Virus record (IMG/VR): IMGVR_UViG_3300032257_000085
Location: 1 to 29,089 of that record
Reading direction: 5' to 3' (one strand)
Length of the DNA stretch: 29,089 nt
DNA from: a virus
Taxonomy: Duplodnaviria; Caudoviricetes
The notes below the pieces were generated by a model. It was not told where the DNA came from, did not search any database, and saw only the letters and a program-made list of their open reading frames with translations. Numbering within the stretch: the first letter of the stretch is position 1; every line of letters starts with the position of its first letter. Positions 3,122 to 25,796 of the stretch are shown here, one piece after another. The translations under genes and the position numbers were made by a program.

Positions 3122-3122
3122 T

Positions 3123-3683
3123 ATGAGTACAACTATTCCAACAGTTGAGCCGGATGATTTTATTGCTGGTGATACGGTCAAATGGACCAAAAGCGTATCT
3201 GATTATAAACCAGAAGATTCATGGGTATTAACCTATTATTTTATTAAGTCTGGTGAACAGCAAAAAGTAACGGCAACAGATAACGGTGATTCAAAACATC
3301 TGGTTACTTTAACCGCAGCAGTCACAGCAGATTGGGTTCCCGGTGAATATAAGTGGCAGGCCGTTGTTACTAAAACAACAGAGCGTTATCCGGTTGATAG
3401 TGGTTCGCTGACGGTCAATAGAGATTTTGCACAAGACATATCAGGCCATGACAGCCGAACTTATTGGGAAACTGTTTTAGAGAATGTTAAAGCGGTTTTA
3501 GAAGATAGAGCGACCAAAGATCAATCAAGCTATACGATTCATGGCAGGCAGTTATCACGTACACCAATGGGTGATTTACTGGCTCTGTATTCAAGAGCTG
3601 AGGGTGAAGTGGCAAAAGAAAAACGCGCAGAAGCAATTGCGAATGGTAACGGGCATAGCGGTAAAATCCTAACGAGATTCTAA
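3123..3683 (+). CDS. head-tail adaptor, gpW-like, with N-terminal beta-sandwich extension
   Basis: Lies between terL and portal; C-terminal SYTIHGRQLSR..L..L motif of gpW-like proteins. Confidence 0.75.
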   Translation: MSTTIPTVEPDDFIAGDTVKWTKSVSDYKPEDSWVLTYYFIKSGEQQKVTATDNGDSKHLVTLTAAVTADWVPGEYKWQAVVTKTTERYPVDSGSLTVNRDFAQDISGHDSRTYWETVLENVKAVLEDRATKDQSSYTIHGRQLSRTPMGDLLALYSRAEGEVAKEKRAEAIANGNGHSGKILTRF

Positions 3684-3684
3684 T

Positions 3685-5190
3685 ATGTTTAATTTATTTA
3701 AAAGAAAACAAAAAACCGTAAAACGCCAGCACCATTATAAAAAGCGCAATTCATTTGAAGGCGCTCAAACATCATCAATCACGTATAGCTGGACCACAAC
3801 ACCCCAGCCGATTAATGAAGTTATCAAGAAAAACCTGAAAACATTGCGGGCGCGTAGTCGTGAACAACAGTTTAATAATGATTATGCCCGCCGGTTTATT
3901 GGTATGTGTAAATCAAATGTTGTTGGTGATAACGGAATTGTTTTACAGGCAAAATCAAAATCTAAAAACGGTGAGCTGGATGTAATGGCGAACCAGGCCA
4001 TTGAAGCTGCGTGGAAAGATTGGAGCAAAAAAGATAACTGCGATATTAAAGGTCGTTGTTCGCGTGATGAATTAGAGCGTTTATTTATCAGTACGGTTGG
4101 TGGTGATGGCGAATGTATTGTTCAATTGCTATACGGTAAATCACTTAACAAGTATGGTTTTGCTTTAAAGTTCATTGATGCCGAGTTATTAGACGTTGAC
4201 TTGAATGAGGATGTTCGCGGCTCAAATAATAAAATTAAATTAGGTATCGAAGTTAATCAGCACGACAAACCAGTTGCTTATTATTTCAAACAAACATCTG
4301 GTGATTATTATTACAACGGAAAGTTTTACACAAGGGTTCCAGCAAAAGATATTATTCATGGATTCATTACTGAGTATGTAGATCAGATGCGCGGGATTCC
4401 CTGGATGAGTACCGCTTTACTCAGACTGAATATGTTAGGTGGTTTTGAAAATGCGGCTTTAGTTAATGCGCGTGTTGGCGCATCTAAAATGGGATTTTTT
4501 ACATCTGATTCAGGCGATGAGTTTAAAGGCGATGGTACAGATGCCGAAGGCAATACGATTTCAGAATCAGAGCCGGGTACGTTTGAGCAGTTAGCAGCAG
4601 GAACATCTTTCCAGGCTTTTGACCCTGCATACCCTAATGGTGAATATACTTATTTCTTAAAGGGCATGTTGCGCGGTATCGCTTCTGGTTTAGGTGCAAA
4701 CTACAACACATTAGCCAATGATCTTGAGGGCGTTAATTATTCTTCACTGCGAGAAGGCGCGATAAATGAACGTGAAATATGGAAATTATTACAAAAATGG
4801 ATGATTAGTTCATTTTCAGATATAATTTACAACAAATGGCTTGAACGGGTAATTTTATCCCCAGGCATTCCGATTGGTAATTCACGCTTACAGCCTGAAT
4901 ATATCGATAAATATCGGGATGTTCATTTTCAGGGCAAGCGTTGGCAGTGGGTAGACCCGTTAAAAGAAATGAACGGGAACCAGGCTGCAATAGACGCTAA
5001 AATCAAAAGTCGTTCTCAGATTATCAGAGCGAATGGTGATGACCCTGATGAAGTGTGGCGCGAAATTGAGCGTGAAAACAAGATGCTGGATTCTATGGGT
5101 TTAACGCCAGAACCAGCAAAAGCGGAAGAAAAGCCGAACAAGCCAGAGGAAAAAGAAGATGACGACGAAAAAGACGACGAAGAAGATTAA
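3685..5190 (+). CDS. portal protein, lambda family
   Basis: LRARSRE..NNDYA, QMRGIPW, GVNYSSLR and WQWVDPLKE motifs; 501 aa. Confidence 0.96.
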   Translation: MFNLFKRKQKTVKRQHHYKKRNSFEGAQTSSITYSWTTTPQPINEVIKKNLKTLRARSREQQFNNDYARRFIGMCKSNVVGDNGIVLQAKSKSKNGELDVMANQAIEAAWKDWSKKDNCDIKGRCSRDELERLFISTVGGDGECIVQLLYGKSLNKYGFALKFIDAELLDVDLNEDVRGSNNKIKLGIEVNQHDKPVAYYFKQTSGDYYYNGKFYTRVPAKDIIHGFITEYVDQMRGIPWMSTALLRLNMLGGFENAALVNARVGASKMGFFTSDSGDEFKGDGTDAEGNTISESEPGTFEQLAAGTSFQAFDPAYPNGEYTYFLKGMLRGIASGLGANYNTLANDLEGVNYSSLREGAINEREIWKLLQKWMISSFSDIIYNKWLERVILSPGIPIGNSRLQPEYIDKYRDVHFQGKRWQWVDPLKEMNGNQAAIDAKIKSRSQIIRANGDDPDEVWREIERENKMLDSMGLTPEPAKAEEKPNKPEEKEDDDEKDDEED

Positions 5191-7000
5191 ATCAGACGGT
5201 TTGTTATGCCGGACGGTTCAAATCAATCGTGCGAATATTGATGAAGATACCCGCACTGTACAATTGTCTTTTAGTTCAGAAGCGCCGGTAGAACGGTGGT
5301 TCGGAAACGAGATTTTAGACCATGACCCTAAATCAGTCCGAATGGACCGGATTAAAAGTGGTGGTCCATTATTAAACGAACACAATCCCAGGGAACACAT
5401 TGGGGTAGTTGAGTCTGTTGACATTGGCAGCGACCGCAGGGGTACAGCCGATGTCCGTTTTAGTGAAAACGAAGATGCAGATAAAATCTATCGTGATGTA
5501 TTAAGTGGGATTAAATCAAATGTATCTGTAGGTTATCGGATACATAAAGCGGTACTCGAAGAAGAAAACAGTGAAGGTCCTGATACATATCGTGTAAACG
5601 ATTGGGAAATTCTTGAGATTTCAATGGTGAGTATGCCTGCTGATATTTCAGTTGGTGTAGGTCGCTCTGAGTCAATTTCTTCCGAGTTCGATATTGAAAC
5701 AATTTCAGAGGTTAGAACAATGGACCCAAAAGATAAAGATACCCCAGCAAAGACCGAGAAAAAGGTTGATGTTGCTGCTATTGAAACAGCGGCGCGTGAT
5801 ACTGCTATTTCTGCGGAACGTGCGCGTACAGGTCGCATTACTAAGATCGGTTCGCAATACGGCGGCGAAGAACTGGCTCGTCAATTCGTTGAAAACGGTA
5901 AATCCGTTGATGAGTTTATGGATGCGCTGGCTGAACAACGCGGCGAAACTGCTGCTAAAGCAAAGGCTGATGGAAACCTAATTGAGTCGCCATCTACTGA
6001 GCTTGGTTTGTCACGCAATGAAACAGAAAATTACTCTCTTATGAGAGCGTTAAATGCTTCATTAACTGGTGATTGGGGCAAGGCTGAGTTTGAGCGTCAA
6101 TGTTCGGTTGAAATCGAAGATAAAATTGGTCGTGAAGCACGAGGCTTCTTTGTTCCTTACGAAGTGCAAGCGCGTACAATGAATGTCGGCACAGATACAG
6201 CCGGTGGTTATATTGTGCAGACTGACGAAGGCGGCATGATTGATTTGTTACGAGCAAACACTGTTTTGGGTGCTGCTGGTGCGAGTTTCTTGCCAGGTCT
6301 GGTCGGTGATGTTGCTATTCCTAAGCAAACAGGCGCTTCAACTTTCTACTGGTTAGGTGAAGATGAAGATGGTACTGATTCAGAGCCAACATTAGGCCAA
6401 GTTCTTTTAATGCCTAAAACGTGCGCGGGTGCAGTACCAATGACTCGTAAGCTGATGAAGCAATCTAGCCCATCGGTTGAAGCGTTGGTTCAGAATGATC
6501 TAAATCGAGGCATGGCGCTTGCGATTGATCTTGCTGGTCTAAATGGTACAGGTGTTGATGGTCAGCCATTAGGTATTTTGAATACTACTGGTATAGAAAC
6601 TTCAACAATTGCCTCTCCTGGTTCACCTACATGGGTTGAAACAGTTGAGTTTGAAAGTGATGTTGATACAGCAAACGCCCTAACTGGCAGCTTAAATTGG
6701 GTTACTACTCCTGCTGTAAGAGGCACGATGAAAACTACGGCTAAAGATTCTGGTTCGGGTTTGTTTGTTTCCTCTTCCGATAATACCGTTAATGGTTATG
6801 ATGTCTTGACTTCTACACAAATGCCAACAAATGGCATTCTGTTTGGTGATTTCTCAAGCTGTATGATCGGTATGTGGGGTGTGCTTGACCTAATGGCTGA
6901 CACGGCAACTAAAGCCGCGTCAGGTGGTCTGGTACTTCGTGTATTCCAGGATGTTGATGTTGGTGTACGCCATATTGAATCATTCTGTAGGAATGCCTAA
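5159..7000 (+). CDS. prohead protease (HK97-type) fused to HK97-fold major capsid protein
   Basis: Protease motifs SFSSE.PV.R, LLNEHN, VSVGYRI, EISMVSMPAD; capsid motifs AGGYIV, GTG..GQPLGILN, LFGDFS. Confidence 0.93.
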   Translation: MTTKKTTKKIKSDGLLCRTVQINRANIDEDTRTVQLSFSSEAPVERWFGNEILDHDPKSVRMDRIKSGGPLLNEHNPREHIGVVESVDIGSDRRGTADVRFSENEDADKIYRDVLSGIKSNVSVGYRIHKAVLEEENSEGPDTYRVNDWEILEISMVSMPADISVGVGRSESISSEFDIETISEVRTMDPKDKDTPAKTEKKVDVAAIETAARDTAISAERARTGRITKIGSQYGGEELARQFVENGKSVDEFMDALAEQRGETAAKAKADGNLIESPSTELGLSRNETENYSLMRALNASLTGDWGKAEFERQCSVEIEDKIGREARGFFVPYEVQARTMNVGTDTAGGYIVQTDEGGMIDLLRANTVLGAAGASFLPGLVGDVAIPKQTGASTFYWLGEDEDGTDSEPTLGQVLLMPKTCAGAVPMTRKLMKQSSPSVEALVQNDLNRGMALAIDLAGLNGTGVDGQPLGILNTTGIETSTIASPGSPTWVETVEFESDVDTANALTGSLNWVTTPAVRGTMKTTAKDSGSGLFVSSSDNTVNGYDVLTSTQMPTNGILFGDFSSCMIGMWGVLDLMADTATKAASGGLVLRVFQDVDVGVRHIESFCRNA

Positions 7001-7006
7001 ATAGGG

Positions 7007-7031
7007 TAGGGGGTGGTAACATCCCCTATTT
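7007..7031 (+). terminator. stem-loop after capsid gene (weak intrinsic terminator or stabiliser)
   Basis: TAGGGGGTG-GTAA-CATCCCCTA, a 9-bp stem with a GNRA loop, followed by TTT. Confidence 0.65.
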
Positions 7032-7034
7032 AAA

Positions 7035-7346
7035 ATGATGCCAGAAATCGAAATCGAAATCACAGCAAACACGGTCTGTAACGGCGAAACAGTTTATGTG
7101 GGTGATGAAATCACTACAGATAAACGCCAGGCAGACATACTGATCAAAGCGGATAAAGCAAAAATTGCTGGTGTAACTTTAGCTAAACTTGAAGCGAGAG
7201 CCGAAAGAAAGCTTGAAGAAGCGGCTGCGGCGGAGGAAGAAGTTAAAAAAGCCAAAGCAGCAGAAGCCAAAAAAGCAGCGAAGGCCGATAAAACGGCAAA
7301 AACTGATGCAAAAAAAGCTGAATCTAAAACCGGAAAAGAGGAATAA
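7035..7346 (+). CDS. head-associated small protein with Ala/Lys/Glu-rich C-terminal tail
   Basis: Immediately after the capsid gene; N-terminal ...GETVYVGDEI...A..LI...KA pattern; low-complexity AK-rich tail. Confidence 0.6.
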   Translation: MMPEIEIEITANTVCNGETVYVGDEITTDKRQADILIKADKAKIAGVTLAKLEARAERKLEEAAAAEEEVKKAKAAEAKKAAKADKTAKTDAKKAESKTGKEE

Positions 7347-7348
7347 CC

Positions 7349-7786
7349 ATGTCTATCATTAAAGACTTTTCAAACAGCCTGGATGATAACGCATCACTTG
7401 TAGCACAAGTTGTTACTGCCGATGCCTTAAGTTCAGCGCTTGATTTACAACAATATGCAAATGGGGCTTTCCTGTTTTGTATTGGTGACTCAGGCGATAC
7501 GCTTTCAGGTTCAGTTTATATTGAACTTGAACTTCAAGAATCAGATGATGATTCTACCTATACGGCATGTGCTGATGCTGACGTTAAAAACACAGTGACA
7601 GGTACTAATACTGGTACAGTTGCCGTTATTAACGCACCAACAGAAGATCAACTGACTGTTTGGGGTGAATACACTGGTACTAAGCGTTATATCAAAGCTA
7701 ACGTCAATGTAACTGGCACTCACACCAATGGTACGCCGATTGCTGTTGTAGGCTTCCGTACTAATCCAGGTGAGTTACCTGTTTAA
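7349..7786 (+). CDS. putative capsid decoration/cement protein
   Basis: 145-aa beta-rich protein with LQESDD..TYT and KRYIK motifs, in the post-capsid position. Confidence 0.55.
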   Translation: MSIIKDFSNSLDDNASLVAQVVTADALSSALDLQQYANGAFLFCIGDSGDTLSGSVYIELELQESDDDSTYTACADADVKNTVTGTNTGTVAVINAPTEDQLTVWGEYTGTKRYIKANVNVTGTHTNGTPIAVVGFRTNPGELPV

Positions 7787-8061
7787 TGGCACTGGAATCT
7801 GATGCTGACAGAGTTGGTATGCTGTCTGATTTTGGCGAGAATTATGTAGTCAATAACAAGACATATACCGGCATATTCGACAATGAGTACATTGAAGAAT
7901 TAAATATGTCAGGGTCGGTTCCTATCCTTAATTGCAGGACGAAAGATGTTGCCACAGTAGATCGTGGCGACACTCTTCATGTAAGAGAAGCTAATTACAC
8001 GGTTAAAGAAAAACAACCGGACGAATTAGGTTTAACGATTCTTATATTGCAGAAACAATGA
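7786..8061 (+). CDS. head-tail joining / head closure protein (gpFII-like)
   Basis: 91 aa with GIFDNEY, RGDTL and YTVKEKQPDELGLT motifs; synteny. Confidence 0.75.
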   Translation: MALESDADRVGMLSDFGENYVVNNKTYTGIFDNEYIEELNMSGSVPILNCRTKDVATVDRGDTLHVREANYTVKEKQPDELGLTILILQKQ

Positions 8062-8495
8062 CGCATCGCGCAGAAAACATAATGGATGCTGTCACAACGA
8101 CAGTAACCGGGCTAACAACAACCGGAACAAGGGTTGTAAGAGGCCGTGTTTATTCAGTAGAAACCGCCCCAGCATTAACGGTTGAAATGGGTAGTGATTT
8201 TGTTGATCGTGAAACATCGGACTTTGTTAATGCAAATCGAACTTTAGTTGTAAAAATTACCGCTATAGTCAAAGCCAATTCCGAACCAGATTCACAATTA
8301 AATACTATCCGTGAAGAAGTTTATAATGCGTTATTAGCTGATCGTACATTAGGTGCAACGGCTGGTGTTATTGATGTTTGGCTTGATACAGATGATGAGC
8401 CGGAATTAAGTTCCGAAGCTGATCAAACAATAGGTAAGCAACAAATGAATTATATGGTAAAATACCGACATTCATACACCGATGCAGGCGCATAA
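8058..8495 (+). CDS. tail terminator (gpU-like)
   Basis: 145-aa acidic protein just before the tail tube; MTHRAENIMDAV and ALLADRTLG motifs. Confidence 0.7.
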   Translation: MTHRAENIMDAVTTTVTGLTTTGTRVVRGRVYSVETAPALTVEMGSDFVDRETSDFVNANRTLVVKITAIVKANSEPDSQLNTIREEVYNALLADRTLGATAGVIDVWLDTDDEPELSSEADQTIGKQQMNYMVKYRHSYTDAGA

Positions 8496-8496
8496 A

Positions 8497-8622
8497 ATGG
8501 CTGAGAATAAACGCGAAACTTTAATACCCAGGGGTGAGCGAAAGAAACAAAAAGCCGCCGCCGAAAAATCAAAACCAAAATCGAAACCAGTAGAGGAAAG
8601 AGAAGATGCTGACAAGTCGTGA
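8497..8622 (+). CDS. 41-aa charged hypothetical protein (absent from ORF track)
   Basis: ATG 8497 to TGA 8622, MAENKRETLIPRGERKKQK...; fills the gap between terminator and tube genes. Confidence 0.5.
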   Translation: MAENKRETLIPRGERKKQKAAAEKSKPKSKPVEEREDADKS

Positions 8623-9538
8623 AGTAATCCTTTGCAAAGAGGAATCCACTTATAATACCGATTCAGCACCTACCGCTTCTGCTGACGCTATTTTAATATC
8701 TAATCCATCGTGGGCCAATGAAGGTTTACGAATGAATGAGCGGGATGTTGTTAAAAAGACACTCGGAAAGAAAAAGAGTATTTACGGTGGTTCATTAAAA
8801 ACCGTTACTTTTGATGTTGAAATAAAAGGTTCAGGTACAGCCGGTACAGCACCCGATTTAGGTGTATTACTGGAAATTTGTGGCATGACTGAAACGGTTG
8901 TTGCTTCTACCTCTGTTACTTATGCCCCCGAATCAGACCCAGCATCAATGAAATCAGGTACATTATGGTATTACCAGGACGGTTTAATTCATAAATTAAC
9001 AGGTTGTCGTGGTAATTTCAGTGCAAATCTGGAAACAGGTAATGTTGGTATGTTCTCGTTTACGATTACAGGCCATTCTGTTGCGCCGATTGATGGCGCG
9101 ATTGTGACACCTACTGTTGATGCAACAGACCCAGTTTCTATTAAAGGTACATCATTTACAATTGATTCGTATGCAGCAACTATCAACTCATTAGCGTTTG
9201 ATATGTCAAATACAGTGGCAATGCCGGCTGATATGAATGCTACTGACGGCTATGGTGAAATATTTGTAGCCCAGCGTGATATTAATGGTACTTTTGACCC
9301 TGAAATGGAACTGGTTGCTACCGAAGATTTTGATGGTAATTTCAGATCAGGCGCGGCAATGGCCTTAACTACTGGTGCGATTGGTGCAACGGCTGGAAAC
9401 ATCCTTACAGTGACTATGCCTGCTGTTTCATACCGTGATATTTCCCCAGGTGATCGTGATGGTATCAGAACCTATGAATTGGCTTATGGTGCGGCTGAAT
9501 CATCTGGTGATGACGGCGTGAGTATCGCTTTCACGTAA
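8606..9538 (+). CDS. major tail tube protein (non-contractile tail)
   Basis: 310 aa beginning MLTSREVILCKEESTYNTD; HKLTGCRGNF motif; precedes the chaperone and tape measure; no sheath gene. Confidence 0.85.
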   Translation: MLTSREVILCKEESTYNTDSAPTASADAILISNPSWANEGLRMNERDVVKKTLGKKKSIYGGSLKTVTFDVEIKGSGTAGTAPDLGVLLEICGMTETVVASTSVTYAPESDPASMKSGTLWYYQDGLIHKLTGCRGNFSANLETGNVGMFSFTITGHSVAPIDGAIVTPTVDATDPVSIKGTSFTIDSYAATINSLAFDMSNTVAMPADMNATDGYGEIFVAQRDINGTFDPEMELVATEDFDGNFRSGAAMALTTGAIGATAGNILTVTMPAVSYRDISPGDRDGIRTYELAYGAAESSGDDGVSIAFT

Positions 9539-9585
9539 AAATGGGTGCATAATACCTATCTTTATAATATAAAAATAGGTGATTT

Positions 9586-9921
9586 ATGGTCCAGGCAATA
9601 AATGTTATCAGTGAATTTGATTTTGTTTGTGATGGCGATAAGGACGAGAGCGGTAATTTAAAGTCAGATGCAACAACATGGAAATTACGCGGCTTAAATG
9701 GCATGGAATGGGTGAAATGTGTTGTAACAGGCAGCGTAAACCATGAAATGGTTATTAATTATGGTTTAGTTGGCTGGAATAATTTTCTGGATGAAAAAGG
9801 CAATGAAATGGAATACTGCATTGCTAATATGTCGAGAATACCACCAGACATACTCACTGATATTTTTTTACAGATTAACTCTGCATCAACCATAGGGGAT
9901 GAAGAAAGAAAAAACTCATAA
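9586..9921 (+). CDS. tail assembly chaperone (gpG-like)
   Basis: Between tube and tape measure; LVGWNNF motif; ends at a slippery A-AAA-AAC. Confidence 0.8.
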   Translation: MVQAINVISEFDFVCDGDKDESGNLKSDATTWKLRGLNGMEWVKCVVTGSVNHEMVINYGLVGWNNFLDEKGNEMEYCIANMSRIPPDILTDIFLQINSASTIGDEERKNS

Positions 9922-10211
9922 TCGCAATTGAGGTTTATTCAAATCCAGATAAATTCAATTGCGAGGATTGCGGGCATCATCATTGTGATGCAGAAAAAAA
10001 GGTAAAGGGTTCAAATGGTGCTGCGGGGTATAATCTACATACCATCAACAATAAGTGGCACTTTCAAACATGCCTTTTACCGATGATTACTGATAGCAGT
10101 AATTTTATGTTAAAAATGCACAAGCATTATCAAAATGGTGTTTTGTTGCAATCGGGCGGGTTACTAGACCAGCCGAATTATTATCTTGAGGCTATGGAGA
10201 TTATCGGTTAA
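9909..10211 (+). CDS. -1 frameshift extension of tail chaperone (gpGT-like)
   Basis: Heptamer A AAA AAC at 9909-9915. The -1 frame stays open to TAA 10209-10211 and encodes ...FNCEDCGHHHC...QTCLLP...GGLLDQPNYYLEAMEIIG. Confidence 0.8.
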   Translation, partial: KKLIIAIEVYSNPDKFNCEDCGHHHCDAEKKVKGSNGAAGYNLHTINNKWHFQTCLLPMITDSSNFMLKMHKHYQNGVLLQSGGLLDQPNYYLEAMEIIG

Positions 10212-12223
10212 TGGCTACAACACATAATATCGACATAGAAGCGAAGGATAAAACCAAAGCCGCTACCGCTTCAATCGGTAGAAATCTCGACAAGACAGCA
10301 TCTAAAGCCGATAACCTGGCTGGCCGCTTCCGTAACATGGCAAGAGCCACAGCAGCGGTACGTGGTCCATTAGATGGTGTTGCAGCCAGAATGTCATCAT
10401 TAGGTTCGTTAATCGGTAGTGTGTCCATTGGCTGGGTTGCGATGGGTACAGCTATTGCCGGTGCTTCTGTAGTTCTTAAAAAATCCGTATCTGTTTTCAG
10501 TGACTATGAACAATCAATGATGGGTATTAATGCCCTGATTGAACGCACTGGTGATGCTGCGGGTGTTACAGGCCAGCAAATCTCTGATATGGCAGAAAGG
10601 ATAGGCCGAGATACATTAGCCAGTGCTGGTGAAGTCAGGGATGCTGCGGCTATCATGCTGACGTTTAAATCTGTTACGGGTGATGCGTTTACCCGATCTG
10701 TTGAATTAGCCCAGGATATGGCGGCTGTAATGAAACAGGACTTAAATTCATCTGTTAAGCAGTTGGGTAAGGTGCTTGAGGACCCAATACGCAATTTATC
10801 AGCTTTAAATCGTTCAGGCGTTTCATTTACTGCAACTCAAACCGCCATGATTAAGAAAATGGTTGAAATGGGTGATAAAGCAGGCGCACAAACTAAAATA
10901 ATGGATGTTTTAGCGGGCCAGTTAGGGGGGTATGGTGCAGCGGAAGGCCAGGGCGTGGCTGGTGCTATTGATTTAGTCGGTGAAAATTGGACTTTATTAA
11001 TGCGTAAAATCGGAGAAACGGGTATTGCTAAACAAGCAGCGGCATGGATGAAGCAATTAGCCAGCGGCATGAGGAATGTTGCTGAAAATATCAATCCTAC
11101 TTTACAGGAAGCATACAACCAGAAATTAAGAGAATTGCATCAATTAGAGAAGGAGGGCAGTGAAGCAAGAGGAAGAAGTGCCGAATCTCAAAAAAATCAG
11201 CGGTGGTTAAGAGAGCAACAGATTCATAATGAGTTGGCTTTATTAACAAAGGAATTAAAGGCTGAAAATGAAATAAATGCCGCTTTCCAGGCTGACGCAG
11301 ATATGATGGCTGGAATCAATGCGGCTAATGAGGCTGCGGCGGTTAAATTTCTAAAGTCAGAAGAAGATAAATTAAAAGCCATTAAGCGCAGGCAAAAAGT
11401 TCAGCAAGACGCGGCTGATAAATTCGGTGAAATGGTTAGAAGTGAGGCCGATACAGCAAGACAGGCTAACCTGGATAAATTAGCGGTAGAAGATGAAAAC
11501 TTTGCCGATAAAATGTTCAAGCTTGAAACACTACACGCAGCATCATTGATGAGTGATGAAGAGTTCTTTTTACAATCAGAATTGTTGGAGCAGGCACACC
11601 AGGACAGAGTAACTACTATTACCGAAGAAGCTGCAAAAAAACGAGAGCAAGTTGAAAACAGGGTAAATAACGCGGTGCTATCTTCGCGCGGCACATTTAC
11701 CAATAGCATGTTGTCATTAGGTAATGCGTTAGCTGGTGAAAACGAAAACTTACAAAAAGCAATGTTTATAATCTCCAAAGCGGTTGCAGTTGGTAATATT
11801 CTTATTGATACAGAAAGGGGAGCTATTGCTGCTATGGCTAGTCGGGCAGTATTGGGTCCGGAGGCAGCAATAGCAGCAGCAACTAAAATTAGGGCTTATG
11901 GTTATGCTGCGGCTGCGGCGACAGCAGCTACCGGTATTGTTGAAGCGGGTGCGAGGGTTCATGGTGGCTCAGTCATCGGCAACAGAGCTTATTTAGTGGG
12001 TGAGCGCGGCCCTGAATTGTTCATGCCTGGCAGATCAGGTAGTGTTATTAATAACAATGATATTACTAATAATAGCTCTACATCTCCTGTTATTAATTTA
12101 ACTCAGAGCATTACTTATGACACGCCATCAACATTATCAAGAACTATAAAAGAGGGTTCCCGTACAATCGTGAGTGCTATAATCGATGCGTTTGAAGCGG
12201 AAGGCAAGGGGCTTCCAGTATGA
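10211..12223 (+). CDS. tape measure protein
   Basis: 670-aa Ala-rich helical protein; QLGKVLEDP and C-terminal YLVGERGPELFMP motifs. Confidence 0.93.
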   Translation: MATTHNIDIEAKDKTKAATASIGRNLDKTASKADNLAGRFRNMARATAAVRGPLDGVAARMSSLGSLIGSVSIGWVAMGTAIAGASVVLKKSVSVFSDYEQSMMGINALIERTGDAAGVTGQQISDMAERIGRDTLASAGEVRDAAAIMLTFKSVTGDAFTRSVELAQDMAAVMKQDLNSSVKQLGKVLEDPIRNLSALNRSGVSFTATQTAMIKKMVEMGDKAGAQTKIMDVLAGQLGGYGAAEGQGVAGAIDLVGENWTLLMRKIGETGIAKQAAAWMKQLASGMRNVAENINPTLQEAYNQKLRELHQLEKEGSEARGRSAESQKNQRWLREQQIHNELALLTKELKAENEINAAFQADADMMAGINAANEAAAVKFLKSEEDKLKAIKRRQKVQQDAADKFGEMVRSEADTARQANLDKLAVEDENFADKMFKLETLHAASLMSDEEFFLQSELLEQAHQDRVTTITEEAAKKREQVENRVNNAVLSSRGTFTNSMLSLGNALAGENENLQKAMFIISKAVAVGNILIDTERGAIAAMASRAVLGPEAAIAAATKIRAYGYAAAAATAATGIVEAGARVHGGSVIGNRAYLVGERGPELFMPGRSGSVINNNDITNNSSTSPVINLTQSITYDTPSTLSRTIKEGSRTIVSAIIDAFEAEGKGLPV

Positions 12224-12822
12224 GTGGTGCTTTACCAATAACGCCAGGATTTAGTTCAATAGACGTTATACCCAGCAACATGGTTATAACGGAATATTCT
12301 GAATCTGGAAAAGTAGAATCGCGTAATACAGGGGGTACTGGGTTATCGTTTAAAATAACGTATGGCGTAATGAATCGCTCTATGTTTATGCCGGTATGGG
12401 CCTTTTTATTAAAGCAAAAAGGCAGTTTTGAATCTTTTACTTTTATTGACCCATCAACAGCAACACCACAAGGCATAGCAACGGGAACCCCTTTAGTTGT
12501 TGGCGCACATACAGCCGGTGATGAAACGATTGCAACGGATGGCTGGACAGCATCACAAACAGGCATTTTATTAGCCGGTGATGTATTAAAATTTGGTGGT
12601 CATAATCAAGTTTACCATTTAACTGATGATGCTGATTCAGATGGCGCTGGTGCTTCGACGCTTTCAATCTATCCACCACTCGAGGAAGCACTGGCTAATA
12701 ATGAATCGATAACTGTTAATGATGTTCCTTATACGGTTAAATTAGTCGGTGATATTTCAGAAAGAAAAACATCGGCCCCTTCACTTATTCGTTATTCATT
12801 TGAATGTCGTGAGGCTAAGTAA
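12220..12822 (+). CDS. distal tail protein (Dit-like)
   Basis: 200 aa directly after the tape measure gene; FL..QKGSFESFTF and LSIYPPL motifs. Confidence 0.7.
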   Translation: MSGALPITPGFSSIDVIPSNMVITEYSESGKVESRNTGGTGLSFKITYGVMNRSMFMPVWAFLLKQKGSFESFTFIDPSTATPQGIATGTPLVVGAHTAGDETIATDGWTASQTGILLAGDVLKFGGHNQVYHLTDDADSDGAGASTLSIYPPLEEALANNESITVNDVPYTVKLVGDISERKTSAPSLIRYSFECREAK

Positions 12823-15800
12823 TGGCTGATCGTAATATGACAGCAGCGGTTATTACCGCACTTAGTTCAGATCATCGTTTTTACCATGCAATCAGCTTTG
12901 ATTTTGCAACACCGTTGCGCTACACCAATTGCTATAAAGATTTAACAATCAGCGCGAATAGCTATATTTCATCTGATCATATAATTGAATATCCAGATAT
13001 TAAAGAAAGTTTAGGTATCAAGTCGCACGGCATTTCTATAAAAATGAGCGGTGTTGCGATTGCAAATCACGCTTTAGCATTAACAGAAAGTTATCTGAAC
13101 AAAGAAGTGGTTATATACCGTGTTTATTTGGACGCTAATAATGCACAGATAGCCGACCCGGTAGAAATGTATAAGGGTTATGTTGACTCATACGAAACAG
13201 AAGAAAATATTGAAAAGGGTACATCGGTAATAACTTGGAAAATAGCCAGTCATTTAGTTGATTTTGATCGCGTTGTTGGTCGTGAAATGTCGGACGATGT
13301 ACAGCAGAATTTACATTCTGGTGATTTAGGGTTTGAATATGTAGAGATTGCAAATAATGTTGATTTTTGGTCAGCAGAAGCGCCATTGCCACCAGCGCAA
13401 GCACCATTTACGCCATCATCACTACAACCAACAGAACCAGTATCAGTGGGTAAAAGTCCGTATTATACCCGCGCATCAAAAAAGAAAAGCGATAAAAAAT
13501 TACCTGTTTTATATGGCAAGGTAAACACTAATGGCATCCCTGTTTTTAAGAAATGGGCTGTTATTGGAGGTGCTGCTGTTTTCGATGTTGTTTATGCAAT
13601 TGGCGAGGGCGAATGTGAATCATTGGTTGAGGTCATGTTTCCTGGCAGAAAAACAAAGGCTTCAAGTTCCAATGTATCAAGTTACCTAACAACCACCTTT
13701 TATTCCGGCACTACAACTCAGGCTGCTGACGCAACATTGGTTGCAGATCATCCAGAATGGACAACCGCGCACCAGTTAAAAGGTGTTTGCTATGTTTACA
13801 TAAGATACACAAATAAAGATAAATGGGGTGATTCAGAACCAATACCAGAGTTTGTTATTGAAGGTAAAAAACTATATGACCCGCGTGATTTAACCACTAC
13901 ATATCAAGCAAATAATGCTCTTGCAGCTTATGATTACTTAACCAATACAACTTATGGCAGAGGTCTTGCTGCGGCTAGTTTAGGTAATATAGATGAGGCA
14001 GCGGATTGGTGCGATACAACAGTAACCACGCATGATGGTGGTGCGGGTACTCAAGCAAGATTTGAAGTCAACGGCATTATAGACACAAGTGAAGATTTAA
14101 AATCAAATATTGAAACAATATTAAATTCTTTTTATTGTCGTCTTGCCTATGTAAATGGAATTTATAATTTAATCTATGAAACAACCAGCGAAGCATCTGT
14201 TTATTCATTAGATGAAGATAATTTATATGGCACATTTAAGGTTAAAGAAAAAGGGAAAAATTATTTATTAAATAAAATAAAAGTCGCGTTTAATGATAGA
14301 AAGTCTGGCGATCAAAGTTCATTTACTGAATTTAGACCGAGACCAATATTAGTTGAATCGGCAACGTATTTATCAGCGGATAATAATCTTGAGTTATCAA
14401 GATATCAAGAGCTTCCATTAGAAACCGATCGATATAGAGCTAGATATCACGGACAGATACAACTTAAAAAAAGCCGTGAAAATATATTGGTCGAATGCGC
14501 GTGTATGCGTGGGTTATCGAATAGAACCGAATTGGGTAATATAGTTGATGTTACACGTACTACTCAGGGTTTTTCTGCTAAAAAATTCCGTGTCACAGCA
14601 ATGACTTTACGTGCTAATGGCTCAACGTCATTTGATGAGCTGGAAGAGTACGAAAGTGCGGTGATGGATAGAACAACACCCGTTGAAACAACCCCTGTTG
14701 CTGATACTGATTACCATGACCCTTACACTGTAGAAGCACCAACGTCATTAGTATTGGCTTCTGGTACTACGCATTTATTAAAAGCGGGTGATGGCACGAT
14801 TATTAGTCGTATCAATGGAACCTTTACCGGCGCAATTGACCCGTTTACAAATCGTTATCGTGTTGAGTATAAGATTAGCACTGAAACCAATTATACAAAC
14901 AGCATGATTTTAGAGGGGAACTCTAATAATGAGTTTTTCATAAGTCCGGTACAGGATGGTGTTACTTATAACGTAAGAATCTACGGCATGAATGTTTTTG
15001 ATCTGGATTCAAGCGCATTAACGGGTAATCATGTTGTTGTGGGTAAAACAGCAGCACCAACAACACCAACAACATTAGCTTCTGCTGCTTTAACAAACGG
15101 AAATAAATTAACATGGTCAGCAATTAGTGATGCTGATTATGATCATACTGATATTTATGCTTTCACATCTGACACAAGAGCCTCAGTAACGGTTGTTGGA
15201 ACATCCAGCACAAACGCATTCACACACGTTACCGGCGTGGCTATGTATTACTGGATTAAACACGTTGATACTACTGGCAATGAATCGGCGTTCAATGCAA
15301 CTGCTGGCGTATTAGGAACACCAACAGCGGTTGCGGCTGGTGATTTGTCTGGTTCGCTTGATTTTGCAAATGTAGATGGCGCGACAAAGCCTGCTGATAA
15401 TGCTGATGTAACAGGCTCTAATACAGCCAATGACACAAGCAATGTAAATGGTGTTGCAGCTGCAACAGTTCAAAGTGATGCAGCTGATGGTGCTACGTTT
15501 ATAGATTCAGATGCAGGTAACTTTGCGTATGAAGACCAGGTGACACCAGCGAATCAAGCAACGCTTACTGATACCAGTTTAATTCCTGACACTGTTGGTA
15601 ATACAACACACATAACCAGATTGAATTTTGATTCAATTGTTCCATTCTCAATAACTAATGGCGATGGTTCTGCTTATTGCGATTTAGGCAAGCTGTATGT
15701 ACGGGCAGACGTAACAGCCAGCGATGCAGTTGTCAGGCTAAAGCGCCCCCTCGGCGCTGTATCGGCAGGCACGTTTCATTGGTCAAAAGATAGAACAACT

Positions 15801-16211
15801 AAATTTATAGTCGCGCCAATATCGGCATCATCCAGAAGTACCTCGGACTTAATAAGGGTGGGTGTTGGGGATATAACGCAGCTTTCAGGCAATAAAGGTT
15901 ATGGTGTAGATTTTTATATGTCTGGCAGCACAATGTATTGCAGGGCATTTAAAATTGCAGGCACCGCTATGGCCACTGGCACTGCTTTTACAGTAACGCC
16001 ATACAATGACTATGAGATTGAATGCGTATTTTTGGCGGGTACATCATTAACAATATATGTAAATGGTGTATCAAGAGGCGTATTTACCACAAGCTTGCCA
16101 ACATCATATCAAGGCGCAAATTTGCCACTTCATGTTCGTGTTGATGGTCATGCGACTTATCCGGCTGAGTTGCGCGTGAGTGAATTTATAGACCAGCTTA
16201 TGGAGTCCTAG
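12822..16211 (+). CDS. tail tip protein: hub-like N-terminus fused to gpJ-like central fibre with FnIII-like repeats and a C-terminal beta-sandwich
   Basis: N-terminal ~175 aa ends in DLGFEY; then LPVLYG, IGEGE, H.LKGVCY, GKKLYDPR, N.AL..YDYLTN..YGRG and RFEVNG gpJ-type motifs; YNVRIYGMN and YYWIKHVDTTGNES FnIII ends. Confidence 0.85.
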   Translation: MADRNMTAAVITALSSDHRFYHAISFDFATPLRYTNCYKDLTISANSYISSDHIIEYPDIKESLGIKSHGISIKMSGVAIANHALALTESYLNKEVVIYRVYLDANNAQIADPVEMYKGYVDSYETEENIEKGTSVITWKIASHLVDFDRVVGREMSDDVQQNLHSGDLGFEYVEIANNVDFWSAEAPLPPAQAPFTPSSLQPTEPVSVGKSPYYTRASKKKSDKKLPVLYGKVNTNGIPVFKKWAVIGGAAVFDVVYAIGEGECESLVEVMFPGRKTKASSSNVSSYLTTTFYSGTTTQAADATLVADHPEWTTAHQLKGVCYVYIRYTNKDKWGDSEPIPEFVIEGKKLYDPRDLTTTYQANNALAAYDYLTNTTYGRGLAAASLGNIDEAADWCDTTVTTHDGGAGTQARFEVNGIIDTSEDLKSNIETILNSFYCRLAYVNGIYNLIYETTSEASVYSLDEDNLYGTFKVKEKGKNYLLNKIKVAFNDRKSGDQSSFTEFRPRPILVESATYLSADNNLELSRYQELPLETDRYRARYHGQIQLKKSRENILVECACMRGLSNRTELGNIVDVTRTTQGFSAKKFRVTAMTLRANGSTSFDELEEYESAVMDRTTPVETTPVADTDYHDPYTVEAPTSLVLASGTTHLLKAGDGTIISRINGTFTGAIDPFTNRYRVEYKISTETNYTNSMILEGNSNNEFFISPVQDGVTYNVRIYGMNVFDLDSSALTGNHVVVGKTAAPTTPTTLASAALTNGNKLTWSAISDADYDHTDIYAFTSDTRASVTVVGTSSTNAFTHVTGVAMYYWIKHVDTTGNESAFNATAGVLGTPTAVAAGDLSGSLDFANVDGATKPADNADVTGSNTANDTSNVNGVAAATVQSDAADGATFIDSDAGNFAYEDQVTPANQATLTDTSLIPDTVGNTTHITRLNFDSIVPFSITNGDGSAYCDLGKLYVRADVTASDAVVRLKRPLGAVSAGTFHWSKDRTTKFIVAPISASSRSTSDLIRVGVGDITQLSGNKGYGVDFYMSGSTMYCRAFKIAGTAMATGTAFTVTPYNDYEIECVFLAGTSLTIYVNGVSRGVFTTSLPTSYQGANLPLHVRVDGHATYPAELRVSEFIDQLMES

Positions 16212-16214
16212 CGC

Positions 16215-16562
16215 ATGTTTAAAGTTGTTGAAAATCTACTGTTCTGGTCTGCTGATAGGGGTAATTATCAGCAAATACCAACAATAGAATCTGAAACACT
16301 GGTAAATTCTAGTGGCCATACAAAGCTTAGTAATGGGTTAATTATTAACTTCGGTAAAGATACAAGAAACTCTGACTCATCTTATACAATAACTTTTGAT
16401 CAGTCTTATACAACCGCCCCAGTTGTTACCTGTACTCGTATAGCGGCAAATAGTGGTTCACCAATGAACGCGGCAACAGTTACTACAACAGGGTTCACAA
16501 TTGATAGAGATAATGCAATTGACGGCGATCAAACCATACACTACATAGCAATAGGTATTTAA
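16215..16562 (+). CDS. small tail-fibre tip / lectin-like protein
   Basis: GHTKLSNGLIINFG...ITFDQSYTTAPVV...YIAIG matches the G.QKLP.GLIIQWG...WIAIG pattern of tail-fibre C-terminal domains; GGAG SD at 16202. Confidence 0.7.
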   Translation: MFKVVENLLFWSADRGNYQQIPTIESETLVNSSGHTKLSNGLIINFGKDTRNSDSSYTITFDQSYTTAPVVTCTRIAANSGSPMNAATVTTTGFTIDRDNAIDGDQTIHYIAIGI

Positions 16563-16906: not shown

Positions 16907-17085
16907 TGGATAAATTCAATTTCATATTCAGAAAAAAATACAGCGCAACTCTAATCGGCATATTTTCAATACTGGTATTGTCATTTGCAGATTTATTAAC
17001 GCCTCATGCGGCTAACGCAATACTGGGTATTACTGTTGCCTTTGTCGGAATGCAAGGCTATGTAGACGGCAAACAGAATGATTAA
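16906..17085 (+). CDS. putative holin (2 TM)
   Basis: 59 aa from ATG 16906 (TAATG overlap); basic N-terminus and two hydrophobic segments; precedes the spanins. Confidence 0.6.
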   Translation: MDKFNFIFRKKYSATLIGIFSILVLSFADLLTPHAANAILGITVAFVGMQGYVDGKQND

Positions 17086-17485
17086 GTGGTTTGCAATACT
17101 GGGGGTGGTGTCTGCTGTAGGTGGCGCGGGTTACTGGGTAGCAACTGAACTGATTGAAAAAGGTAGATTAGAAGTTGCAAATGAAACGCAAACTGAAACT
17201 ATAAAGTCATTACAAGATGGAATGAATCATTATGTGAAAGCCATTCAGTTTATGAGTGATGACTTTATAAAGAGTGAGGCAAAAGCAAATGAACAAAAAA
17301 AGCGATTCAATCTTGATGGCATGGAAAAACTTATCAAGAACAATCCGGTTCGCGCCGCTGCTGTTGCTTACAGTAATACAGATGTCCTGTTTTCTGAAAT
17401 CGAAACCAGACGTAATAGTTTCCGCGATCGAAACAAAGCCGAAACTAAAATGCCAGATAAGCGCTTACCCGCCTACATTCCATAG
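17078..17485 (+). CDS. i-spanin (Rz-like)
   Basis: Single N-terminal TM followed by a helical periplasmic domain; overlapped by a lipoprotein ORF. Confidence 0.7.
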   Translation: MIKWFAILGVVSAVGGAGYWVATELIEKGRLEVANETQTETIKSLQDGMNHYVKAIQFMSDDFIKSEAKANEQKKRFNLDGMEKLIKNNPVRAAAVAYSNTDVLFSEIETRRNSFRDRNKAETKMPDKRLPAYIP

Positions 17486-17624
17486 ACCGAAGCCCGCTAT
17501 CATTCAGGGGCATATCTGTTTAACGACAGAAGATAATAAAAACTTCTGGAATAACTATATTGATGGACTTAAATACGAATCCCAGCTTGAGGACTGCATA
17601 CGCACGTTTGAAAATTACCAGTAA
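17316..17624 (+). CDS. o-spanin (Rz1-like lipoprotein)
   Basis: Overlaps the i-spanin in another frame; MAWKNLSRTIRFAPLLLLTVIQMS-C signal with lipobox-like Cys; Pro-rich segment. Confidence 0.65.
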   Translation: MAWKNLSRTIRFAPLLLLTVIQMSCFLKSKPDVIVSAIETKPKLKCQISAYPPTFHRPKPAIIQGHICLTTEDNKNFWNNYIDGLKYESQLEDCIRTFENYQ

Positions 17625-22118: not shown

Positions 22119-22550
22119 ATGTCCAGAGGCGTAAACAAAGTAATATTAGTGGGTAACGTAGGTAAGGACCCTGAAACACGTTATACGCCTAGTGGTGTAG
22201 CCGTTACTAATTTTTCACTGGCAACAACTGAAACCTGGAAGGATAAAAATACAGGTGAAAGGCAGGATAGAACCGAATGGCATAACATCGTTATATTCGG
22301 AAATCTGGCAGAAATAGCGGCTGAATATGTTACTAAAGGTAAACAGCTTTACGTCGAAGGCGGTTTAACTACTGAAAAGTGGCAGGACAAAAGCGGCAAT
22401 GATCGTTACACCACAAAAATAAAAGTCATTGAAATGCAGATATTAGGGGGTAAGCCTAATAATCAACAATCAAGCAATCAAAACCAGAATCAACAGCAAC
22501 AGCCAGCTAATAGCGGCTCTGACGTTGGCGATGATGATATACCTTTTTAG
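22119..22550 (+). CDS. ssb: single-stranded DNA-binding protein
   Basis: [26 protein letters not shown], and C-terminal DDDIPF. Confidence 0.98.
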
Positions 22551-22804: not shown

Positions 22805-23278
22805 ATGAACAGAAGAAACTTTATAAAATCAGTAGCTGCATTAATGGCGGGGCCAGTAGTGGCAAAAGCTAATTTATCGGAAGGGAGTCAAAAATTAAGC
22901 TTAGAGCCGGATCCGGTATTTTCTTTTAAAGGAAAAGAAGTCGAGCCTGAAACACGGCTTGAAAGCCATGAAAATATAGGCGGTATTTATAAAGGTAATA
23001 TTCTTGTTGCTGCCTTTAAAGATTGGAGGCTAACACATAGCCATAACGGTAATATCGTTTCATGGGAAATCGATGCCGATTTATATTTAGATTATATGGG
23101 GCTTAATTTATTTCCAAATGAAACATATCAAGTTAGGCTTTTTAATGGTGATATAGAGCGAACAGGAAGCGTTGTTTTATGGCAAGTATTTTATGAAATC
23201 GCGTGTACGGGTCATAAACAGTGTAGTTTAGAATTAAAAGGCATCGACGAATTAATGCAAACAATGAATGAAGGGTAG
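22805..23278 (+). CDS. Tat-signal protein 1; mature part tail-tube-like
   Basis: MNRRNFIK twin-arginine motif, short h-region, VAKA cleavage site. Confidence 0.6.
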   Translation: MNRRNFIKSVAALMAGPVVAKANLSEGSQKLSLEPDPVFSFKGKEVEPETRLESHENIGGIYKGNILVAAFKDWRLTHSHNGNIVSWEIDADLYLDYMGLNLFPNETYQVRLFNGDIERTGSVVLWQVFYEIACTGHKQCSLELKGIDELMQTMNEG

Positions 23279-23564
23279 AACACCAACAACCGTTGAACAA
23301 CGGTTTATGAGCAAGGTTGCTGAATTAGGGTGTATTGTATGCAGGAACAAATATAAGGTATTTAGCCCTGCTGCAATACATCACATTGAAGGCAAGACGA
23401 AGATTGATGCACATTTTATAATATTGCCCCTATGCCCTAAACATCATCAAACCGGGGGGTATGGGATAGCATTACACGCAGGCCGCGCCGAATGGGAAAA
23501 GCGATACGGAACCCAGGCAGAGCTACATTTACAGGTATTAGAGTTAATAGCAAACGGAGAATAA
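23268..23564 (+). CDS. Ref-like (RecA-dependent) HNH nuclease
   Basis: GCIVC...AAIHHIEG...AHF.ILPLCPKHHQ...WEKRYGTQ. Confidence 0.8.
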   Translation: MKGRTPTTVEQRFMSKVAELGCIVCRNKYKVFSPAAIHHIEGKTKIDAHFIILPLCPKHHQTGGYGIALHAGRAEWEKRYGTQAELHLQVLELIANGE

Positions 23565-23565
23565 A

Positions 23566-23757: not shown

Positions 23758-23778
23758 TAACAGTAAAAGGTGAATGGT

Positions 23779-23946: not shown

Positions 23947-24128
23947 ACAACAGCTATGAATATTTATTAGATTGCTTTGCCCGGAAAATAATATCAATGC
24001 CAGAGGGTAGAATGCAGTTATTTTTAAAGCGAATGACCAAGCATCACAATGATGAATTTATGGCTAATATGCGTGTTAGAATGGAAAAACAACGGCGATT
24101 AGCAATGCCTAAAAGGAACAGGTTATGA
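23943..24128 (+). CDS. hypothetical basic protein
   Basis: GTGA and ATGA overlaps at both ends. Confidence 0.5.
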   Translation: MNNSYEYLLDCFARKIISMPEGRMQLFLKRMTKHHNDEFMANMRVRMEKQRRLAMPKRNRL

Positions 24129-24367
24129 CACCAGAACAGGAAAAAAGGTTATTAGAGTTTAAGCCGTTTGATGCCTGGAACAATAATTGCTCTTTAACAA
24201 ACGCCGATTTTAAAGAATTATTATTTAAATATATTAAATTTGTTGGTGAAGCTGAGGGTGTTGATTATATTTGTGGTCATATTGACTTACGAGAGCATAC
24301 AGATACAAAATTTACTGATCAGGAATGGGAAGTATTAGTGAAATTATCGAAGAGGGCAAGAAAATGA
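24125..24367 (+). CDS. hypothetical protein
   Basis: 80 aa, translationally coupled on both sides. Confidence 0.55.
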   Translation: MTPEQEKRLLEFKPFDAWNNNCSLTNADFKELLFKYIKFVGEAEGVDYICGHIDLREHTDTKFTDQEWEVLVKLSKRARK

Positions 24368-24654
24368 ACAGAAGATCATTTCTAAAAAGAACATTGGCTG
24401 CGGCGGGTGTTATTGCGATGCCTGGATCGTTAAAGGCAAAGCCTGAAACGGTTTACGAAAAAACAACTGTTGAAAGCAAGTGGAAACGAGAACCAAAATT
24501 GATTTATGAATCTACACCAATATCACCAGACGAATCTAACTTTGGCGCGATATGGGTAGCAGAAAAAGGCGAGACATTTGTCAGAAAAGGTGATAAGTGG
24601 GTATCAACAACATGGCCTGAAATAAATAAAAACATTGTTCCACGTGAAACATAA
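24364..24654 (+). CDS. Tat-signal protein 2
   Basis: ATG 24364 (ATGA overlap); MNRRSFLKRTLAAAGVIAMPGSLKA. Confidence 0.65.
   Translation: MNRRSFLKRTLAAAGVIAMPGSLKAKPETVYEKTTVESKWKREPKLIYESTPISPDESNFGAIWVAEKGETFVRKGDKWVSTTWPEINKNIVPRET
24636..24651. promoter_or_regulatory. parS: chromosomal-type parS centromere site
   Basis: TGTTCCACGTGAAACA, an exact fit to the TGTTNCACGTGAAACA parS consensus. Confidence 0.8.
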
Positions 24655-24987
24655 ATGATAGAAAACAGTTTGATTAAAATAAAGCCGTTATCTGTCAATG
24701 TATGCTGGCAGGGAAAACGATTCAAGACACCTAAATACAAGGCATACGAAAGCCAGGTGTATCTGATGTTACCTAATATCGTAATACCTGATGGCGATTT
24801 AAAATTAAATATGACCATAGGGGTCAGCACAAAAGCGGCTGATTTAGACAATACAGCCAAACCCTTCATTGATATTCTTCAAAAGAAATACGATTTTAAT
24901 GATTCACGTATTTATCAGCTTGTAATGATTAAAGATATTGTTAAGAAAGGTGATGAATACATCGACTTCTACATTGAGCCGTACTAA
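24655..24987 (+). CDS. rusA: RusA-like Holliday junction resolvase
   Basis: PLSVN..W...T..Y..Y and DLDNTAKPFID.L...NDSRI motifs. Confidence 0.85.
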   Translation: MIENSLIKIKPLSVNVCWQGKRFKTPKYKAYESQVYLMLPNIVIPDGDLKLNMTIGVSTKAADLDNTAKPFIDILQKKYDFNDSRIYQLVMIKDIVKKGDEYIDFYIEPY

Positions 24988-25021
24988 GTTATAATCACGC
25001 TATAAACTCAATGGAACCCCA

Positions 25022-25363
25022 ATGAAATTAGGCAAAAAGCAAGAGTTGTTCATGCGTCTATTACCCAGGCTGATTGATAAGGCCCATAGTCTGGGCTTTG
25101 AAATAAGGGGGGGTGATCTATACCGTGACCCGAGTTTACATGGCGAATTTGGTAAAAAGGTTGGTTACGGGTCCAAAAATTCAAATCATAAATTAAAATT
25201 AGCGGTTGACCTCAATCTAATGAAGAATGGCAGGCTTGTTACAAGCACAAAAGGCCACGAAGAATTGGGTGAATGGTGGGAGCAGCAGCATGAATTATGT
25301 CGATGGGGCGGGCGCTTCAAAGACGGTAATCATTACTCTTTAGAGCATTGGGGTACGGCGTGA
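25022..25363 (+). CDS. endolysin, peptidase M15 family (L-Ala-D-Glu peptidase-like)
   Basis: SNHKLKLAVD (SxH...AxD Zn ligands) and WGGRFKDGNHYS. Confidence 0.88.
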   Translation: MKLGKKQELFMRLLPRLIDKAHSLGFEIRGGDLYRDPSLHGEFGKKVGYGSKNSNHKLKLAVDLNLMKNGRLVTSTKGHEELGEWWEQQHELCRWGGRFKDGNHYSLEHWGTA

Positions 25364-25785
25364 TGGCTAATCAACAGCTAATACATAAGGCTATCTGGAC
25401 TATTACGCTTACTTTATTTTTAGGAATTGTGAGTACGGCTGGAAGCGTTATATGGTCAACAAACGCGACTAATGAACAGATAAAGAATAATGTTGCTTAC
25501 AGCAAAGAAAATCGAACATTAATTAAGCAGAACCAACATGCAATTGCCTTAATTCATCAAAACGGGGCAACAATGATAGAGCATTTGGCTAAAATATCAG
25601 TTTCAACACAATATATCGAAAAATCTGGTGATGACAGAAATAAACTATTAAAGAAAGTAATTACAAGAGCTGATAAAACAGCTTTAGAGCAAGCCAGAAG
25701 AACGCGTGATGTCAACGCAATAAGGCCAGCTATTAATCGGTTAATAGATCATATAAATACAGATCAGGCACACGGGAAACAATAG
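25363..25785 (+). CDS. single-TM coiled-coil protein, possible holin/antiholin
   Basis: TGATG coupling to the endolysin; N-terminal TM AIWTITLTLFLGIVSTAGSVIW. Confidence 0.5.
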   Translation: MANQQLIHKAIWTITLTLFLGIVSTAGSVIWSTNATNEQIKNNVAYSKENRTLIKQNQHAIALIHQNGATMIEHLAKISVSTQYIEKSGDDRNKLLKKVITRADKTALEQARRTRDVNAIRPAINRLIDHINTDQAHGKQ

Positions 25786-25796
25786 GTATTATTTAA

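Follow-up and report, generated by a model that had tools for sequence, protein, structure and literature searches.

The stretch analysed here, called the window throughout, comprises 29,089 nucleotides and coincides with its whole database record, a linear virus contig rated 75% complete by CheckV, in which no terminal repeat was found. It belongs to a lambda-like siphovirus with all recognised genes on the + strand. A head and tail module (80..16562, featuring a gpA terminase, a lambda-family portal, a protease-capsid fusion, a tape measure and a tail tip) is followed by a spanin-like gene pair, by about 20 small genes, by the ORF carrying the site described in this work and by genes for a RusA-like protein, an M15 endolysin and a membrane protein; two large virion-type proteins are encoded after the latter. 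Among the small genes, a TraR-type zinc finger, a single-strand DNA-binding protein (SSB, 22119..22550) and a Ref-like RecA-dependent nuclease (23268..23564; PF16786, E=8e-18) could be recognised. The two genes at 17078..17624 are regarded as probable spanins because of their overlap and of an N-terminal hydrophobic stretch, the match to DUF2570 (E=0.01) being below cut-off. The lysis genes are apparently split, with the spanin-like pair after the tail genes, and endolysin and membrane protein 7.4 kb further on.

The region between head-tail and lysis genes is poor in familiar functions. Between 17624 and 24987 we could recognise neither a replication initiator nor a helicase, a recombinase or a divergent repressor operon; the 44 ORFs scanned in the 29 kb gave no match to an integrase, a repressor family or a replication initiator. 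A repeated element, TCAACAAATAAGTTGACA, occurs there in two exact copies, at 17711-17728 and 21488-21505, while 0.06 matches would be expected even at up to 3 mismatches. Both copies end in TTGACA; in the one at 17711, the inverted repeat GTCAAC-N6-GTTGAC covers a likely -35 box and precedes a small HTH-like ORF (17788), and the pair looks like a shared operator-promoter of early genes. ORF 17788 was considered as a counterpart of the Cro-like gene of the closest related record, G001, and discarded, since the two do not align. A 205-aa protein encoded at 18239-18856 shows a weak match to an integrase arm-binding domain (PF13356, E=1e-4), the catalytic domain being absent; it was also evaluated as a possible ParB, and rejected, as only weak HTH_17 look-alikes were obtained.

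The site of interest is found at the 3' end of a small ORF (24364..24654, +), whose start overlaps the preceding stop as ATGA and which encodes 96 aa, or 109 aa when read from an ATG at 24325. Its N-terminus is twin-arginine-like, with a match over cut-off to TIGR01409 (E=0.0014) and one below cut-off to PF10518 (E=0.003). Starts of this kind, MNRR(N/S/D)F, are found on small unrelated ORFs, in the window at 22805-23278 and 24364-24654, and also within the packaging genes of another virus locus, L246 (13127-13603 and 18034-18459). The last codons of the ORF, T GTT CCA CGT GAA ACA, read as the end of I-V-P-R-E-T-stop, in agreement with the sequence-only reading of this DNA, which had placed a parS site within the terminal VPRET. 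The stop is directly followed, in a TAAATG junction, by the ATG of a RusA-like Holliday junction resolvase (24655..24987, +), 3 nt past the site; this gene is assigned by its matches to phrog_11573 (E=6e-37) and to the RusA-like phrog_34 (E=2e-6), that to PF05866 (E=4e-4) being below cut-off. The endolysin, of the peptidase M15 type (25022..25363, +; PF13539, E=4e-6), comes next, along with the membrane protein (25348..25785, +), which has no family match and is a putative holin or antiholin because of its position after the endolysin; relatives about 50% identical to it are encoded in two other loci, L242 and L270.

The parS site itself, TGTTCCACGTGAAACA, lies at 24636-24651 (no strand assigned); its two arms are GTTCCAC and GTTTCAC. 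It shows 0 mismatches to the consensus given for chromosomal parS in PMC7022226, TGTTNCACGTGAAACA, and differs at 1 position from the perfect palindrome TGTTTCACGTGAAACA. The exact 16-mer is also present in two proteobacterial genomes, G051 and G060, within apparent origin regions. In the former it lies at the 3' end of what we take, from the translations, to be a recF-like gene, part of a dnaA-dnaN-recF-gyrB cluster; in the latter it is found upstream of genes which, again from the translations, are presumably gidA-gidB-parA-parB. The description of the site as a perfect copy of the conserved chromosomal ParB-binding sequence is therefore confirmed by both the consensus and these genomes. The further claim, that such a match is very unlikely to arise by chance in 29 kb, is also sustained: with the site masked, and under Markov models of orders 0-4, from 6e-5 to 1.2e-4 matches to the consensus are expected per window, and from 5e-4 to 1.4e-3 16-mers at most one mismatch away from the palindrome.

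Only one copy of parS is present within the 29 kb, and it contains the only CACGTG of the window. A second candidate, at 8201-8216 within the tail terminator gene (TGTTGATCGTGAAACA, two mismatches), was rejected, being absent from G001. For DnaA, Chi, KOPS, matS and LexA, whose motifs were taken from general knowledge, nothing notable was seen near parS. Three sequencing runs, X1 to X3, all labelled as microbial mat metagenome, provided contigs: the X3 contig spans 24246-24789, and the X1 contig, a possible source of the same DNA, covers 22500-28992, both with 0 differences to the window, so that an assembly error at parS is ruled out. The X2 contig, also a possible source of the same DNA, shows four differences, the three listed ones lying all away from parS; in a further run, X4, the position of parS was not covered. 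The site is thus real, and probably not a product of chance.

Occurrence of parS was evaluated throughout the virus contigs of IMG/VR, where counts refer to stored stretches, redundant contigs included, and are accordingly rough. An exact parS was found in about 7,900 stretches, as estimated from 1 of 64 parts, corresponding, against 2.9 million contigs, to a frequency of 0.27%. A core-swapped control, TGTTNCAGCTGAAACA, in which the arms are kept and the central CG is changed to GC, was found in about 360 stretches (22 of 64 parts), and a reversed control in 20. The core-swapped control is the sharper of the two, and the 22-fold excess it indicates, rather than the 400-fold one, is used here. 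Base composition at position 5 differs in the two populations: T, C, G and A are found in 96, 36, 3 and 2 instances, respectively, in 134 parS loci (a locus may hold more than one), and in 11, 41, 41 and 27 instances in 120 control loci. After scaling, the C variant, which is the one found in the window, is represented by about 2,100 matches vs 123 in the control, a 17-fold excess, while the G and A variants stay near the control (177 vs 123 and 118 vs 81, respectively). The excess, therefore, tracks a pyrimidine (T or C) at position 5, in line with chromosomal parS. Contamination by host DNA does not explain it: none of ten host proteins typical of origin regions was encoded within up to 3 kb of 80 parS loci with long flanks, in a search where positive controls were matched.

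The ParB_N domain was found in only 2 of 49 parS-bearing virus records, taken from the 134 parS loci by way of their first 50 distinct contigs, and in 1 of the 11 which are at least 90% complete. Virus contigs with parS thus usually show no ParB. The notion of a chromosomal-type site residing on phage DNA devoid of ParB, put forward from the window only, is thus found to extend to a population of virus contigs, in which parS is strongly enriched and ParB mostly missing.

The window conforms to this pattern. No match to ParB_N (PF02195) or to the ParA-type ATPase (PF13614) was found in six frames of the 29 kb, and the sequence-only reading, which saw neither parA nor parB, holds for this extent of a 75% complete record. 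The site might in principle be read by a parB, or by a parAB pair, encoded in the portion of the genome lying beyond the window. Such a portion, of 8-10 kb, exists: the proteins of the window are also found on a longer contig of this phage (37,285 bases), and the X2 contig extends 4,493 bases past the end of the window; moreover, the two ParB_N-containing records indicate that some viruses do combine site and protein. However, no ParB is found in the other 47 of the 49 records, nor in 10 of the 11 near-complete ones, and the G001 segment corresponding to the missing part contains structural and small early genes, none of 12 ORFs from it having a ParA- or ParB-named PHROG among the matches listed. 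Plasmid-type ParB, furthermore, usually reads its own sites, adjoining the par genes. A self-encoded partition system is accordingly regarded as very unlikely.

Relatives of the phage were searched for the same site. The closest record, G001, shares 79% capsid and 83% terminase identity with the window and, over 11.5 kb, 77% identity at the nucleotide level. Its completeness is 62%, and no parS was found in it within two mismatches. Its early region is different, featuring a lambdoid initiator, NinB, NinG and recombination genes; homologues of the carrier gene, the RusA-like gene, the SSB and the endolysin are missing. Either the early region has been replaced as a whole, or replication genes of the window phage lie beyond the window. 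A scan of relatives for the site, suggested along with the sequence-only reading, gave a negative result: parS was found, within one mismatch, in none of the 44 whole records, G001 included, whose capsid or RusA is related to that of the phage (1.04 Mb, mostly fragments). None of these contains a homologous carrier gene, and only near-identical strains cover parS. Metagenome loci, where parS was scanned within the fetched stretches, were also negative, whether selected by RusA (0 of 26), capsid (0 of 55), terminase (0 of 26) or signal peptide (0 of 3). One record, G024, the sole positive among 42, holds the same 16-mer, and is not counted as a relative, having been reached only via the signal peptide. 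Not one of 210 parS-bearing virus loci encodes a protein in common with the window, and a homologous parS-stop-start junction, sought in 76 loci, was not found in any sharing a protein with it.

Among the loci of the family defined by ORF 28294, 1 out of 80, L262, contains a site, AGTTTCACGTGAAACA. This one-mismatch parS (6263-6278, encoding VSRET) belongs to an unrelated phage, where it occupies the 5' portion of a small gene located downstream of replication genes and ahead of virion-type ones, a placement resembling that of the window's parS.

These data indicate that parS is apparently not a trait of this phage lineage; it looks like a recent, lineage-specific gain. They also bear on the simplest explanation, namely that the 16-mer drifted by chance, or neutrally, into the tail of an orphan gene, where it is inert or binds ParB without consequence. 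The site is in single copy and missing from all the 44 related records and from the related RusA, capsid and terminase loci; moreover, about 120 of the about 2,100 C-variant matches in IMG/VR (6%) are expected to be due to chance according to the core-swapped control, and the window was itself selected, from a very large scan, for having parS. On the other hand, only about 1e-4 sites are expected per window, and the C variant is in 17-fold excess, the G and A ones being close to the control. Absence in kin is not surprising either, as, with a background rate of 0.27% of contigs, about 0.1 site-bearing records are predicted among 44: the result does not refute a function for parS, yet it provides no indication of enrichment in the lineage. 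Taken together, a chance or neutral origin appears unlikely.

The carrier gene is an orphan. In IMG/VR, matches to its product are limited to the signal peptide (3 loci); among 5.8 billion proteins only the protein itself was retrieved, among 1.84 billion representatives itself and one weak, 26% match, and in Atlas matches of 0.82 or less. Failure to find a homologue beyond the signal-like stretch is counted against the interpretation we prefer. The idea that VPRET is kept for its peptide was also discarded, being unsupported: there are no homologues, and, given the codon use of the phage, the peptide IVPRET would be encoded by parS only about 1.1% of the time.

An orphan gene within a mosaic region, not common to the closest relative G001, might suggest that parS is a passenger, which arrived with host origin DNA, or with the gene itself from some other element, and has not yet decayed. 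The surroundings of the site do not fit such an origin well. The 40 bases on each side are unlike, by eye, those flanking the 16-mer in G051 and G060, and ten proteins from origin regions gave no match in a tblastn search of the window (E 0.01); furthermore, parS ends in frame at the stop-start junction of phage genes. This possibility is considered highly doubtful.

The nature of the host may be approached from the gene content. The best match of the SSB, in a search of 10 of the 64 parts of the species genomes, is a Gammaproteobacteria MAG (71% over residues 1-112); further matches, at 43-65%, are spread over several phyla, and matches among named proteins point to Woeseiaceae and Gammaproteobacteria, at 61%. 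The spanin pair, the SSB and the TraR-type protein, as predicted, are suggestive of a Gram-negative, probably gammaproteobacterial, host. Against this assignment, and hence counted against the host component of the preferred interpretation, the closest cultured terminases are those of Roseobacter phages (53-56%). A portal search of genome_contigs for prophage relatives gave none, and a blastn comparison to cultured phages was discarded, as it produced only short matches with E of at least 0.1. Eighteen genomes (11 with gammaproteobacterial labels, and 7 others) were chosen from 80 SSB loci; parS was found, within one mismatch, in 16 out of 18 of these bacterial genomes, reached via the phage SSB, and its commonest form in the gammaproteobacteria is TGTTCCACGTGGAACA. 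The phage site is one mismatch away from both common palindromes, and therefore does not discriminate between host classes. That the site argues against Enterobacteriaceae, another point of the sequence-only reading, agrees with a statement in PMC7022226, according to which members of this family have no par genes. Overall, the host is probably a gammaproteobacterium, judging from its phage's proteins.

Two observations, the virus-wide excess of parS and the lack of ParB in 47 of 49 records bearing it, make loading of host ParB the best reading of the site. According to this interpretation, to which we assign a probability a little above even, host ParB would be loaded by parS onto unintegrated phage DNA, aiding its positioning and inheritance. 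The host ParB clamp would load at parS and then spread; host ParA, and possibly SMC, would position the ParB-loaded phage DNA, which would be carried along at cell division or during a stalled infection. We infer, in this respect, a gammaproteobacterial host endowed with ParABS, binding of ParB to the site in the cell, selection acting on parS and a benefit in partition. According to PMC7022226, a single parS suffices for positioning by ParAB and is able to stabilise a plasmid. The presence of a single copy in the window weighs nonetheless against this reading, since five are found in phi29, and so does the failure to identify, in the 29 kb, a replication initiator or a repressor that would support an episome. 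Recruitment of host ParB, already proposed in the sequence-only reading, thus stands as regards the identity of the site and its enrichment on viruses in general, and fails to find a counterpart in related phages, no locus related by capsid, terminase or RusA having parS.

The immediate gene context suggests a different role, in which host ParB, bound at parS, would weaken or postpone transcription of the genes for resolvase and lysis. The site is located at the head of the block formed by resolvase, endolysin and membrane protein, 3 nt from the RusA-like start and 370 nt from the endolysin, and the one-mismatch site of the unrelated L262 is similarly placed, although in only 1 of 80 loci. According to PMC7022226, the P. 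aeruginosa ParB represses genes adjacent to its sites parS3 and parS4, and expression fell when a parS was placed upstream of a plasmid promoter; the same source reports, in contrast, that loss of Spo0J left genes beside the B. subtilis parS sites unchanged, and that few V. cholerae genes were altered by loss of ParB. The window's site lies, in addition, within an ORF, and not within a promoter, and was not found near any of 26 RusA relatives. A putative sigma-70-like consensus match (24968..24995, +; 10/12) is found just upstream of the endolysin, but 24 such matches were scored in the region vs 32.8 in shuffled sequences, so that it must be regarded as weak. Local control of this kind is, on balance, decidedly unlikely. 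Just as improbable, in our opinion, is a bolder version of host ParB loading, according to which the phage would persist unintegrated via host ParABS, ParB would also delay lysis, and this would be a habit of thousands of environmental phages; if true, the timing of the burst would be tied to the segregation state of the host, in a non-sporulating Gram-negative bacterium.

Use of a host centromere by a phage has a known precedent. In the Bacillus phage phi29, five parS sites are read by the host Spo0J (ParB) protein, with the result of entrapment in the spore, and Spo0A boxes restrain the lytic cycle; parS is carried also by the Bacillus phage Nf, as described in PMC2731898 and PMC9437464, both of which cite Meijer et al. 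2005. The window resembles phi29 and Nf in featuring, on a phage genome, a chromosomal-type parS to be read by a host protein. Unlike phi29, which has five sites along with Spo0A boxes and a Firmicute host, it carries one parS in 29 kb, and belongs to a lambda-like siphovirus whose host is probably Gram-negative and non-sporulating. Matches to 0A boxes are at chance level, 2 being found vs 2.83 expected, both within late structural-type genes. For these reasons the phage was not filed as a member of the phi29 type, and spore entrapment in its host is unlikely.

The site is, by sequence, that of a chromosomal ParABS centromere: it fits the consensus, is the same as those in G051 and G060, and overlaps a coding sequence, as parS also does on chromosomes. 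It differs in its viral location and in the lack of parAB, dnaA or oriC nearby. The plasmid prophages P1 and N15 have their own ParA and ParB proteins, acting on their own centromeres. The outcome predicted for the window phage, inheritance of unintegrated phage DNA, would be the same; in contrast to these prophages, however, neither parA nor parB is found in the 29 kb, and parS is adjoined by resolvase and lysis genes. Some likeness may also be seen to the CtrA-binding sites of alphaproteobacterial phages, associated with lytic deferment in PMC9437464: in both instances a host DNA-binding protein of the cell cycle would be used through cis sites alone. Those sites, however, are dense, intergenic and linked to promoters, and their binding has been shown, whereas the window features one intragenic, predicted site. 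As for chromosomal sequences, the P. aeruginosa parS given in PMC7022226 is TGTTCCACGtGGAACa.

The phi29 precedent implies that phage use of a host parS is not new in kind. In the literature listings covered, which mostly exclude subscription journals, we found nothing on host-type parS in Gram-negative phages or in viral metagenomes. The window phage is a weak exemplar, its site being present in one copy and in none of the related records, and its host being uncultured; its parS is best read, on present sequence evidence, as a borrowed host centromere. A Gram-negative phage carrying parS and devoid of ParB would need a payoff other than spore entrapment, candidates being inheritance in a carrier state, positioning within the cell and the timing of lysis. 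In this perspective, the excess of parS throughout the collection, about 7,900 stretches and 22-fold over the control, outweighs the single locus in importance.
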